NCBI GenBank assembly: GCA_903859055.1
Contig: CAIOLC010000102.1
Coordinates: forward strand, 2,170 to 66,169
Length of the DNA stretch: 64,000 bases
Origin: an uncultured Chlorobiaceae bacterium
GTDB taxonomy: Bacteria > Bacteroidota > Chlorobiia > Chlorobiales > Chlorobiaceae
Direction: 5' to 3'
Below the pieces are notes generated by a model. That model worked only from the letters and a program-made list of their open reading frames with translations. It made no database searches and was not told the DNA's origin. Every line of letters begins with the position of its first letter. Position 1 is the first letter of the stretch. Position numbers and translations under genes: made by a program. Positions 24,844-30,146 of this stretch are shown here, in pieces.

Positions 24844-25257
24844 TTACCGATTCATTCCTGCGCCTCGCCCCATTCCCTGCCCCATTCCCATATTCGGGTT
24901 GTACTGATCCCATACCCATTCAGCTACGGCGCGTAATTCAGCATCCGGCAGCGTGAGGGCAGGCATAAGACCAAATCGGGTAATGGCTTGAGGGTCAATT
25001 GCGCTGTTTTTGTTCGGTGATTTCAGGTAAGCAACAATGTGATTCATACCCTCTTTTTTTGTCTGGAACTTCAGATGGTAGCGGTTAGCGAGCGGCATAA
25101 TTGGCGGGGCAGCTTTTGGCGGGGGCATCACGGAATGGCAGACACTGCAACTTCTGGTAAAAATCTCCTGGCCACTCAATGCTTTAGCTGATACGATTGG
25201 CGGTGAAAACCCTGACACCAAACCGGACAGAATACAAACGGACAGAACTCTTTTCAT
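24844..25257 (-). CDS. Exported class I monoheme cytochrome c
   Basis: AGGAG RBS before the ATG at 25257, signal peptide, CSVCH, distal Met in RFGLMP. Confidence 0.88.
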   Translation of the reverse strand: MKRVLSVCILSGLVSGFSPPIVSAKALSGQEIFTRSCSVCHSVMPPPKAAPPIMPLANRYHLKFQTKKEGMNHIVAYLKSPNKNSAIDPQAITRFGLMPALTLPDAELRAVAEWVWDQYNPNMGMGQGMGRGAGMNR

Positions 25258-25655
25258 GATTATTCTCCTGTTACTGTTTACCCATCTTATCGACCTGATC
25301 AACTCTTTATTGTCAATACATATTCGATTAATAATGCGGTAATATAGTCATATTTGAATCAGAGGTATTGACTTATATACGCATACTGTTTGGTCTTCAC
25401 CATTTTTAGTGCAAGTTCTCTACTGAATACGACGATTTTTTCAGTAGAACCGTGCGTAACTGTTTTATCTATTTTCTCCAACCATTTACAGGAAAAAAGC
25501 AAAAGCTTTTGAGAAGCGAGGTACCTGAAGGCTGAAATCAGGATATTGGGAGTCACGTCATGGGATGACCCCGTTTAGCGTAAAAAAACTGGCTATTCAA
25601 AAAAAAATCTCTATACCGGCACAAACAGTTGATCGATAAATAAAAATTCGCGATA

Positions 25656-25684
25656 TTTATACCAATAGGGGGTATGGGTATAAA
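25656..25684. promoter_or_regulatory. CsoR/RcnR/CstR-type operator inside a symmetric TTTATA-N17-TATAAA promoter-like element
   Basis: TTTATACCAATAGGGGGTATGGGTATAAA: ATACC-N7-GGTAT dyad with a G5 tract. Confidence 0.6.
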
Positions 25685-25776
25685 GCATCCCCATTTACCC
25701 ATAGAAAGTACGCTCTGTCATTCATATTGATAATGTGGAGCCATGAACCGAAAAATTTCAGATAAAGTGAAAACCT

Positions 25777-26142
25777 ATGAAAAGCTCTCTTGAAGTGAAC
25801 CCCGCTGCGGCCCTTGCCATGATTCAAAAGGGAGCATTGCTTGTTGATGTACGCGAATCGCGTGAAATTGCCGAAAAGTCATTTGATCTGCCGGATGTTA
25901 TCCAGATTCCTTTGGGTGAAATGAAAAGCCGGTATCGTGAAATACCTGAAAACCGTCAGGTAATTGTGGCCTGTCGCAGTGGTAGTCGCAGCATGATGGC
26001 AACCAGCTTTCTTGCGGGGAAGGGATACAGCAAAGCAATGAATATGCAGAACGGAATAATGGGATGGGAAAGGGAGGGGCTGCCACTCAAAACACAACCG
26101 AAACAAGCAGGAGGAGGATGGCTGCAACAGATATTTGGGTGA
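25777..26142 (+). CDS. Single-domain rhodanese (sulfurtransferase)
   Basis: LLVDVRE, active-site loop CRSGSRS, GIMGWEREGLP. Confidence 0.93.
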   Translation: MKSSLEVNPAAALAMIQKGALLVDVRESREIAEKSFDLPDVIQIPLGEMKSRYREIPENRQVIVACRSGSRSMMATSFLAGKGYSKAMNMQNGIMGWEREGLPLKTQPKQAGGGWLQQIFG

Positions 26143-26180
26143 AAATGAGAATAAATGCACATTCACGTGTATAGAGAAAG

Positions 26181-26225
26181 ATGTGCAAAGCAACGCTTAA
26201 CGCTACTCCATGTTGCTTTGCACAT
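26181..26225. terminator. Hairpin between the convergent rhodanese gene and the sqr operon
   Basis: Perfect 14-bp inverted repeat ATGTGCAAAGCAAC / GTTGCTTTGCACAT, 17-nt loop. Confidence 0.7.
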
Positions 26226-26252
26226 GCTTTAAGGATCCCCCCTTACCGGTTG

Positions 26253-26411
26253 TCAGGAGTGTCCGCCAACGACAACCCTCATAATCTTGACATTTAACAC
26301 AACAAATCGAACAAGCTGCCACAGCAGGTTTTTCCGCCAATAGAGTATCCCTTTTGATGGTACCGGCGGATAAGCTTCATCGTAATATGCTTTAACTTTA
26401 TTGGTGCCCAT
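26253..26411 (-). CDS. 52-aa small protein directly downstream of sqr (not in the ORF track)
   Basis: Hand translation MGTNKVKAYYDEAYPPVPSKGILYWRKNLLWQLVRFVVLNVKIMRVVVGGHS; starts 35 bp after the sqr stop and ends before the hairpin. Confidence 0.75.
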   Translation of the reverse strand: MGTNKVKAYYDEAYPPVPSKGILYWRKNLLWQLVRFVVLNVKIMRVVVGGHS

Positions 26412-26446
26412 AGTATTTCATGTTTGATGTTATCATTATACAACAG

Positions 26447-27901
26447 TTATTCAGGAATTAACCACCAGAATGGATAACCCTTTGCTTTATGGAAAAAGAG
26501 ATAGTGCAGGATTACTTTCAACCAGTGCCCTGCCAGACCAGCCTCTCCGAGAGAGTAGTTCATATCGCGACCCCATTCAGGATATTTGTCCCAGTCAGGA
26601 ACAACAGGAAAGAGGGTCATTGATGCGCCGAGTCCATCCAATGAACCAAAACCCGCTGATACAACACATGCGGCGCCCATTCTGCTCATTGAGGCTTTAT
26701 GGCGATGCTCTTTGGCCCCCTGAATTTGTTCAGCAATATTCAGTGCTACAATTTTACCCATAACACCTGCAGGCATACCAGTTCGCGGTGCTGTCGGAAA
26801 AATCTGACGGCCACTCGGGCTTGCCATGGGTTTGGAAATAGGATGCGGAGGGGCAAAGGCTATGCCAGGAGCATAGATATTTTTGTAGAGAGGATTCTGG
26901 TAAAGAGAGGGCCAGTCATCAGCCTCCCACTCCTCAAAAGGTTTTGCCTCATAATTTGCATCAACTTTCATAAACTTGTTTGGCGCAAACATCTTTTCGG
27001 TAATTTCGACTCCAATCTTGTCATAAGCCGTCAGACCAGCTCCTGAAAATGAGGGGATGAGCATGGCGAAGTCAAATTCCTGAATACACTCTTTACCATC
27101 CAGTGTTTCATAATATGCCTTGCCTGGTTCAACCCTGTGAACTCCGGCTCGTTTTATCCATTTGATACCATATTCGGCCATGAGGGATTCAGTGAAGACC
27201 TTCGTCGGAGTGTAATAGCCCCCCCTGTTAATAAAAGCACCTGCCATGCCAAAATCACCCAGCTCATACTCATTGGAGATCCAGGTGATCTGCGCCATAT
27301 TACTCAGACCCCGTTTTGAGATCTCCCAGGCCACATTCAGAATGTATTCAAAGGCTGCCCCCTGGCAGGTTGCCATTGCATGGCCCGTGCCGATCAAAAT
27401 GCGCTGCTTCTTGCCAGCCTGCATCTTTTTGATATTGTCCTGAAGATGTTCCCATGCGTGGGCCGCATGGTCGTATGTACAAACTGAAAAAGTGTTCTTG
27501 TCGGGACCGAGCCCCTCGGTTGCCTCAAAATTCAGCTTTGGACCGGTGGCATTGACCAGAAAATCATAGTCAACCTTTTCGCGTTCTCCCTTTCTCAACA
27601 GGTCGGTGTACTCAATGGTCACATACCCTTTCTTGATTTCACTATCCCCTTCCGGGTGTATTGCAACAGCTTTGGCCTGCTTCAGGATGATGCCCCAGCG
27701 GTTATAAACTTTTTTCAGTTCAAAGCGGACATCATCAATTTTCATCTGGCCAACACCAACCCAGATGTTTGACGGAGTCCACTGATAGTAACTGTTTGGG
27801 GTAACGACAACAACCTCATGCTGTTTGCCAAGTTTCTTTTTGAGAAAAGAGGCTGCGGTATGTCCTGAAACACCTGCTCCTAAAACTACAACTTTTGCCA
27901 T
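26447..27901 (-). CDS. sqr: Sulfide:quinone oxidoreductase, type IV (SqrD/SqrX-like)
   Basis: VVVLGAGVSG FAD motif; Cys in SVCTYDH, ATCQGAAFE and GAACVVSAG; PRTGM; C-terminal GHWLK...YPFWWLIPE. Confidence 0.93.
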   Translation of the reverse strand: MAKVVVLGAGVSGHTAASFLKKKLGKQHEVVVVTPNSYYQWTPSNIWVGVGQMKIDDVRFELKKVYNRWGIILKQAKAVAIHPEGDSEIKKGYVTIEYTDLLRKGEREKVDYDFLVNATGPKLNFEATEGLGPDKNTFSVCTYDHAAHAWEHLQDNIKKMQAGKKQRILIGTGHAMATCQGAAFEYILNVAWEISKRGLSNMAQITWISNEYELGDFGMAGAFINRGGYYTPTKVFTESLMAEYGIKWIKRAGVHRVEPGKAYYETLDGKECIQEFDFAMLIPSFSGAGLTAYDKIGVEITEKMFAPNKFMKVDANYEAKPFEEWEADDWPSLYQNPLYKNIYAPGIAFAPPHPISKPMASPSGRQIFPTAPRTGMPAGVMGKIVALNIAEQIQGAKEHRHKASMSRMGAACVVSAGFGSLDGLGASMTLFPVVPDWDKYPEWGRDMNYSLGEAGLAGHWLKVILHYLFFHKAKGYPFWWLIPE

Positions 27902-29847: not shown

Positions 29848-29889
29848 GATAAAGAGTAGTGACAATAGTTGCTTTAAAACTTTAGTAAC

Positions 29890-29918
29890 ATTATAAGCAT
29901 AAGCTCATAACAAAGCAA
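29890..29918 (-). promoter_or_regulatory. Sigma70-type promoter with a 20-bp dyad filling the spacer
   Basis: Minus strand TTGCTT-N17-TATAAT; dyad TTATAAGC-ATAA-GCTCATAA at 29891-29910. Confidence 0.6.
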
Positions 29919-29950
29919 CCCGCCAAGGCTGTTTTCGGTACTAATCGAAA

Positions 29951-29969
29951 AAATAATTCTGAATTATTT
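29951..29969. promoter_or_regulatory. Perfect 9-1-9 AT-rich palindrome upstream of the osmC promoter
   Basis: AAATAATTC-T-GAATTATTT. Confidence 0.35.
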
Positions 29970-30097
29970 ATCCAGGCCAGTACCGTTGAAATGAAACAAA
30001 TAGTGGAGGTGATCTCTTTTCATGGTGAGTGGAAGATGACAAAACCGGAAAAGGGGGGCAGATTTGGAGGGTATATTGTGATTGACCGGGAAAAACA

Positions 30098-30131
30098 AAA
30101 AAGCAGTACAGCGTGAACTGTACTGCTTTTT
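30098..30131 (-). terminator. Intrinsic terminator of pnp
   Basis: AAAAAGCAGTACAG-CGTGAA-CTGTACTGCTTTTT. Confidence 0.85.
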
Positions 30132-30146
30132 CAGTATTGATAGTAT

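Follow-up and report, generated by a model that had tools for sequence, protein, structure and literature searches.

A candidate CstR-type operator before a rhodanese gene in an uncultured Chlorobiaceae bacterium

Introduction

Green sulfur bacteria are major players of the anoxic sulfur cycle, with few recognisable regulators. The locus described here, from an uncultured Chlorobiaceae bacterium (assembly GCA_903859055.1), raises the question of which protein might read a G-rich palindrome lying between a cytochrome c operon and an oppositely oriented rhodanese gene, and which of the two transcription units it would control. The DNA analysed is a 64,000-nucleotide stretch of contig CAIOLC010000102.1, called the window below; all coordinates without a contig prefix refer to it. 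An original prediction, made from these letters, placed a CsoR/CstR-like operator inside a symmetric, possibly bidirectional promoter facing both units, proposed that a persulfide-sensing, CstR-like repressor encoded elsewhere acts on it in trans, and advised a search of the genome for CsoR/RcnR genes and for further copies of the motif. Both searches were run and are reported here, together with a comparison across the family. The operator and the trans-acting repressor are borne out; the symmetric promoter is not.

The palindrome and its setting

The palindrome lies in a 519-bp intergenic region (25258-25776). On the minus strand to its left is a cytochrome c gene (24844-25257, by Pfam) that heads a three-gene operon; it probably starts at 25257, which leaves 401 bp between it and the operator. 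On the plus strand to its right, 95 bp from the operator, is a gene for a single-domain, cytoplasmic rhodanese of 121 aa (25777-26142; Pfam Rhodanese, 45.4 bits) with the active-site loop CRSGSRS. A 16-codon ORF (25743-25793; ATGAACCGA...TCTTGA) runs in another frame across the rhodanese start codon (25777).

Read directly, the operator is a 23-bp palindrome, ATACCAATAGGGGGTATGGGTAT (25659-25681), made up of the pentamers ATACC-A-ATAGG-G-GGTAT-G-GGTAT. Its general form is ATACC-n-ATACC-n-GGTAT-n-GGTAT, four pentamers spaced 6 bp apart, and it can be read as ATACC-N7-GGTAT written twice, the two copies overlapping with an offset of 6 bp. The first 17 bp (25659-25675), ATACC-AATAGGG-GGTAT with a G5 tract, form a site of the classical cst/CsoR type. 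The elements lie where the original prediction had put them: ATACC at 25659-25663, AATAGGG at 25664-25670 and GGTAT at 25671-25675, with TTTATA at 25656-25661 and TATAAA at 25679-25684 on either side of a 17-bp spacer (25662-25678). An inverted-repeat scan shows these two hexamers to be the A/T flanks of the outer arms of a 29-bp full palindrome, TTTATACC-N13-GGTATAAA (25656-25684, arms at 25656 and 25677), and the operators of relatives are likewise bordered by A/T-rich sequence. None of the three nested elements (23, 17 and 29 bp) is assigned a strand.

The core dyad exceeds chance expectation. The window has a single exact ATACC-N7-GGTAT and the whole 2.65-Mb genome has six; four of these are inside ORFs of 362-856 codons, and the only two intergenic copies are the window site and one on contig C280 (C280:7777) that immediately precedes the genome's one CsoR-family gene. 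These two, tatttATACCAATAGGGGGTATgGGTAT in the window and atattATACCTATACAGGGTATtGGTAT on C280, are alike well beyond the 10 specified bases. A 23-bp weight matrix trained on relatives' sites only, with the organism's own genome left out, gives 30.9 bits to the C280 site and 30.4 bits to the window site; the next genomic match, at 14.0 bits, stays within what shuffling produces (best scores in shuffled genomes, 14.4-17.5 bits), so only two sites stand out. Matches with one mismatch are not enriched, numbering 63 genome-wide against 53 for a reversed control, and the four such matches in the window were set aside as chance, all being in long ORFs and without the outer pentamers. Across 81 genomes of the family, a degenerate form of the 23-bp pattern finds 108 sites as opposed to 15 for the reversed control, typically one to three per genome. 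One genome (G076; loci L028, L076 and L077) has seven operator sites, one of them adjoining flavodiiron-protein-like and NifX-like genes, which suggests a locally expanded regulon.

The original prediction also described a second dyad overlapping the first, TATGGGTA (25673-25680), N15, TACCCATA (25696-25703), again with no strand assigned. Its coordinates are correct, but its significance did not hold up: the window has 72 perfect inverted repeats of 8 bp with spacers of 3-20 bp, or about 0.6 for every intergenic region as long as this one, and the dyad was not seen in the downstream sequence of relatives, leaving it at chance level. It was also tried and rejected as a second operator, with a half-site agreeing at 8 of 10 positions, a match estimated at ~0.4 by chance in the region; the TACCCATA arm is a chance half-site-like match, outside the element.

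A probable promoter upstream of the operator

In Chlorobaculum tepidum, dRNA-seq has given a green sulfur bacterial RpoD promoter consensus, TTG-N17-23-TA[ATC][ATC][AT]T, related to the TTG/TAnnTTTG type of the Bacteroidota; an operator that overlaps the -6 box or +1 is taken there as a sign of repression, and one example has its -6 box 4 bp ahead of +1 (preprint, 10.1101/172254). Measured against this lineage consensus, TTTATA is without the TTG and TATAAA without the final T, and no exact match was found on either strand of 25258-25776. A scan for E. coli-type promoters returned a single candidate, TTGATA-18-AAAAAT (25727-25756), which was no better than shuffles and was rejected.

The relatives indicate where the promoter may be found. 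Exact-consensus promoters occur near the operator start at 11 of 20 relatives' rhodanese promoters, with the box ending 0-5 bp before the operator, and at 22 of 30 cstR promoters, with the box ending anywhere from 2 bp inside the operator to 4 bp before it. In the window, the TTG at 25629-25631 on the plus strand is the probable -33 element of the rhodanese gene, at an offset of -30 from the operator (-28 to -32 in relatives). Positional homology also points to the probable -6 box on the same strand, either GATATT (25652-25657, spacer 20) or TATTTA (25654-25659, spacer 22), each agreeing with the consensus at 5 of 6 positions. The rhodanese +1 is accordingly predicted near 25662-25664, inside the operator's first pentamer: with the promoter just upstream of it, the operator would cover +1, TTTATA would overlap the likely -6 box and TATAAA would fall downstream of the start. 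The second genomic operator (C280:7777) abuts the regulator's own promoter, TTG-N19-TATATT, with ATACC following the box directly.

Several other features of the region were considered. An RNA element in the 5' leader was rejected, the fold of 25659-25780 being ordinary (z = -0.71) and without an Rfam family. No Rfam family was found in 25200-26500 as a whole; just sub-threshold matches, to a microRNA family and on both strands, fall on a strong hairpin (26172-26232) that lies between the rhodanese gene and the convergent genes beyond it, a small ORF of 52 codons and then an SQR gene. The hairpin is probably a bidirectional terminator.

On the other side of the operator, the ~370 bp at 25258-25628 have no annotated feature, no Rfam match and no consensus promoter on either strand, that of the cytochrome operon included. 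Orthologues of the cytochrome operon were compared at 29 loci, and at none was an operator present within 300 bp upstream; the nearest, at one locus, is 316 bp away. In G076 the cytochrome operon is downstream of the rhodanese gene and convergent with it. With a distance of 401 bp in the window and no operator within 300 bp at the orthologous loci, the bidirectional control that had been suggested is unlikely, and the cytochrome operon is probably outside the control of the window operator.

The candidate repressor and its operon

As the original prediction stated, the window has no CsoR-family gene. The whole-genome search finds exactly one PF02583 (CsoR/RcnR, DUF156) gene, on the separate contig C280 (G000:C280:7853-8068; 74.6 bits, cut-off 22.8), in keeping with a repressor that would act in trans. 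The full gene (C280:7826-8080) encodes a protein of 84 aa (75.4 bits in a Pfam scan), and the operator before it, ATACCTATACAGGGTATTGGTAT, is 26 bp ahead of the ATG.

CstRs are characterised by an x-C-x-C motif without the Cu-ligating His, while a Tyr is kept in all Cu(I)-sensing clusters of the family (PMC8643695). In the C280 protein the ligand positions are Cys35, Asn60 and Cys64: both cysteines of the x-C-x-C pattern are present, the copper ligand His and Tyr are absent, Asn60 stands at the His position in place of the C-H-C or C-H-H set of copper sensors, and the residue before Cys35 is Glu (E34; ...KGEEC35...), not the Tyr of Cu(I) sensors. All 31 orthologous regulator genes that were read keep the C35/N60/C64 signature. 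Among solved structures the closest is the C9A form of SpCstR from S. pneumoniae (7MQ1; E 1.9e-9, ~32% identity), but its 40.8 bits are not far above InrS (35.9 bits) and CsoR (35.3 bits) in the same comparison, so that placing the protein in the persulfide branch depends on the ligand signature together with the regulon. SpCstR belongs to SSN cluster 10, which is published as a persulfide-sensor cluster along with clusters 3 and 4. The repressor's NLKEC aligns on the NLTEC of SpCstR, placing N60 on the "wedge" residue Asn55, the position altered in the N55A mutant structure 7MQ3. The nearest named NCBIfam models are RicR, FrmR and RcnR, all far under cut-off. Taken together, the two cysteines and the missing His support a putative repressor of the CstR type, as the original prediction had supposed; within the CsoR family this is the branch with two cysteines and no His.

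The regulator gene heads an operon (C280:7826-13285; locus L012, 2827-8286) in the order cstR, outer-membrane factor (OEP, 442 aa), RND permease (1068 aa) and MBL-fold protein. The pump scores 444 bits as a multidrug-type RND versus 271 bits as CusA/CzcA. No gene for a periplasmic adaptor lies between OEP and RND in the C280 operon, where the gap is 2 bp; in one relative (G017) a 149-aa lipoprotein ORF lies between these two genes. The best solved relatives of the MBL protein are 4YSB, two unnamed MBL-fold entries (8ZBD and 9RHQ) and plant glyoxalase II, and after these come ETHE1 (4CHL, annotated as a persulfide dioxygenase), BpPRF and S. aureus 3R2U. We take 4YSB to be the Myxococcus persulfide dioxygenase and 3R2U to be S. 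aureus CstB. On these matches the MBL protein that follows the pump appears to be persulfide-dioxygenase-like.

Conservation in the Chlorobiaceae

The window's rhodanese region, searched against 81 genomes of the family, gave 29 homologous loci in relatives. An operator (up to 3 mismatches, up to 400 bp upstream) is present at 21 of these 29 rhodanese loci, which supports the rhodanese gene as the plus-strand target. At the loci of cstR orthologues the association is complete: all 30 have an operator within 150 bp upstream, all 30 have the OEP gene directly downstream, and the RND pump is next after OEP wherever the fetched sequence extends that far. A PF02583 gene is present in every one of the 81 sampled family genomes. 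In a sample of the phylum, the CstR subtype was found in 40 of 40 genomes of the family and in none of 161 genomes of other families.

In three relatives (G034, G063 and G076) cstR stands next to the rhodanese gene and diverges from it, the pair having a single operator in common, and these shared operators differ from the window site by a single base (G063, G076) or by three (G034). The one-base variant is ATACCAATAGGGGGTATAGGTAT; in G063 and G076 it separates cstR from the rhodanese gene, and in G072 it precedes the rhodanese gene. Operators of a third class are seen at relatives' loci L072-L077 (G063, G072, G074, G078 and G076), between a gene for a lipoprotein cytochrome c (~126-133 aa, CAGCH) and an osmC operon consisting of osmC, a 383-aa FAD oxidoreductase and DUF134/methyltransferase. 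Divergent pairs with an operator between them are, in relatives, cstR/rhodanese, osmC operon/rhodanese and lipoprotein cytochrome c/osmC operon, the last with another cytochrome than that of the window's cytochrome operon.

The regulon in the organism itself is narrower. Although the same gene families are in the window, the osmC promoter there (compare 29866-30146) has no such operator; the neighbouring osmC-DUF134-sqr operon has none in this genome, while relatives have one. The weight-matrix scan of the genome placed no operator before the SQR gene next to the rhodanese gene, and no TauE was found in the regulon.

Some relatives carry additional CsoR paralogues, of a 91-aa C-H-H type and an 89-aa H-C-H-C type (loci L043-L046, L050 and L057). 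No operator palindrome precedes these paralogues, which are probable metal sensors. The organism studied here has the CstR-type copy only, and therefore no recognisable Cu- or Ni-sensing CsoR.

Proposed mechanism and alternatives

We think it probable that the window palindrome is the operator of the CstR repressor encoded on C280 and that it overlaps the rhodanese promoter. The reading draws on the motif, on its being unique in the genome and conserved before both gene sets, and on the sequence signature of the repressor; the CsoR/CstR-type operator of the original prediction is supported both by its agreement with the S. mitis cst core (14/17) and by its place before 30 of 30 cstR orthologues. 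In the reduced state, repressor tetramers would sit on the palindrome, probably two of them, one on each overlapping ATACC-N7-GGTAT half. With the palindrome starting some 1-2 bp after the probable -6 box (about 25652-25659) and covering the predicted start, transcription of the rhodanese gene would be blocked. When cytoplasmic sulfane sulfur (persulfides, polysulfides), the presumed inducer, increases, a Cys35-Cys64' cross-link would be expected to form; the cross-linked repressor would leave the DNA, and the rhodanese gene and the repressor's own operon would come on together. For a CstR, such links between protomers are di-, tri- or tetrasulfides produced by persulfide or polysulfide, and Cu(I) does not bring about release. 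The genes behind the operators include several that handle sulfur: the rhodanese, the persulfide-dioxygenase-like MBL protein and, in relatives, the osmC/FAD-oxidoreductase operon. Against this reading are the proposed promoter's own box, which agrees with the consensus at only 5 of 6 positions, the efflux genes (OEP and RND) that form the core of the regulon and are typical of metal sensors too, and the green sulfur literature, which credits sulfide regulation to CT1277 and PSOS-1 (10.1101/172254), not to a CsoR-family protein.

Three other explanations have to be weighed against a CstR operator. The symmetric promoter of the original prediction, with TTTATA as -35 and TATAAA as -10, would fire on both strands and leave a repressor bound in its spacer in control of both the rhodanese gene and the cytochrome c operon. 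Its hexamers and their 17-bp spacing are real, and some relatives do have one operator between divergent genes. We nevertheless consider it unlikely: the hexamers are the palindrome's own flanks and do not fit the lineage consensus, mapped green sulfur promoters being of the form TTG-N17-23-TAnnwT, of which the intergenic region has no match on either strand; the promoters of relatives lie upstream of the operator, not around it; and the cytochrome start is 401 bp off, with no operator within 300 bp at any of the 29 orthologous loci. Another possibility is a copper- or other metal-sensing repressor of the CsoR/RcnR type, the rhodanese gene being a side target of a metal-efflux regulon. Membership of PF02583, the identity of the nearest named NCBIfam models (RicR, FrmR and RcnR, if far below cut-off) and the efflux genes downstream of the regulator would all suit such a sensor. 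It becomes very unlikely in view of the ligand changes (His to Asn, and the Tyr of Cu sensors to Glu), a pump that is closer to multidrug-type RND (444 bits) than to CusA/CzcA (271 bits), the nature of the other operator-linked genes (a rhodanese and a persulfide-dioxygenase-like enzyme), the lack of any copA/copZ-type gene beside either genomic operator site, and the C-H-H and H-C-H-C paralogues of relatives, which are without the operator.

Finally, the palindrome might be bound by some other regulator, either the DUF134/HTH protein of the same island or CT1277 by way of PSOS-1, in which case its co-occurrence with the CsoR-family gene would be coincidental. There is a precedent in a 2017 preprint that has an operator motif, itself undeposited, before sulfide-regulated Chlorobiaceae genes and assigns it to CT1277 (10.1101/172254). 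The targets of PSOS-1 (sqr genes and TauE) nevertheless differ from those found here, and the motif is of the type bound by CsoR-family proteins and stands before 30 of 30 cstR orthologues. One relative, G026, is informative in this respect: at neither of its DUF134 loci, one of which is at 1.195 Mb, is the palindrome present even when 4 mismatches are allowed, and its only strong site, at 1,949,009-1,949,031 and next to a TATTTT box on the minus strand, precedes the CsoR-family gene. We take G026 to be Cba. tepidum TLS, in which gene 1277 would presumably fall at 1.195 Mb. With the palindrome absent at this putative CT1277 locus and the targets different, identity with PSOS-1 appears unlikely, and binding by another regulator is highly improbable.

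Implications

If the palindrome is a CstR operator, green sulfur bacteria would have a family-wide candidate sensor with an exact 23-bp operator and a very small regulon: its own efflux/dioxygenase operon, the rhodanese gene and, in some species, the osmC/FAD-oxidoreductase operon. A literature search for CstR or CsoR in green sulfur bacteria found no paper making that link. Chlorobaculum tepidum is genetically tractable.

The invariant core of the regulon invites a further, rather improbable suggestion, namely that it is an export system: cytoplasmic sulfane sulfur would be sensed and a sulfur species (polysulfide or organic persulfide) pumped across both membranes, the rhodanese feeding this route. 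If true, this would attach a defined sensor and transporter to a process that has long lacked an explanation, the transfer of zero-valent sulfur to the globules that green sulfur bacteria form outside the cell.

Comparison with known systems

Within the Chlorobiaceae, a parallel is the PSOS-1/CT1277 circuit of Chlorobaculum tepidum (10.1101/172254), in the same family: there too the operator overlaps the -6 box and +1 of sulfide-responsive RpoD promoters, and the proposed repressor is autoregulated. It differs in its regulator, an HTH protein, and in its targets, sqr genes and a TauE-like gene, and seems to be distinct from the CstR circuit described here.

TTHA1953 of Thermus thermophilus (PMC10318464), a sulfur oxidiser, is a cysteine-dependent member of the CsoR family that represses remote sulfur-oxidation genes in trans and also regulates a divergent cytochrome c gene. 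Long G/C tracts are missing from its motif, it targets sox genes, and NaHS did not release it in vitro; here, by contrast, a classical cst-type operator goes with a small regulon of two sites. In S. aureus, the persulfide-sensing CsoR paralogue CstR represses the sulfurtransferase and persulfide dioxygenase genes of the cst operon (cstA, cstB, sqr and tauE) and has the same x-C-x-C motif (PMC8643695), whereas here the SQR gene is without an operator, the dioxygenase-like gene follows an efflux pump and no TauE was seen.

There is a strong likeness to the cst/CstR systems of S. mitis, S. pneumoniae and Enterococcus faecalis (SSN cluster 10; 7MQ1; PMC8643695), whose regulators are also small PF02583 proteins with two cysteines and an Asn in place of the His, and have single-domain rhodaneses among their targets. 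The CstR binding assays were done with the S. mitis cst operator, ...AAATATACCCTTATGGGGTATATTAAA, whose core, ATACCCTTATGGGGTAT, is ATACC-N7-GGTAT (PMC8643695); like the window site, this operator has A/T flanks and a central G/C tract, and the two 17-bp cores are identical at 14 of 17 positions. The differences are equally clear: protein identity is ~32%, the operator here is longer, with four pentamers in 23 bp, the regulator's operon encodes OEP and an RND pump where the Firmicutes operon has a CoA-persulfide reductase, the rhodanese gene is unlinked and on a separate contig, and the host is an anaerobic, sulfide-living phototroph, not a Gram-positive pathogen. The published model for the Firmicutes proteins has two tetramers per operator (PMC8643695), and two overlapping copies of the site would fit such a model. 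In kind, the circuit proposed here would be an expected extension of a known mechanism, its local interest lying in the doubled operator and the invariant efflux system; as far as motif and gene context can tell, the comparison shows that the operator grammar of Gram-positive CstRs, ATACC-N7-GGTAT, carries over to the Chlorobi as two overlapping copies.
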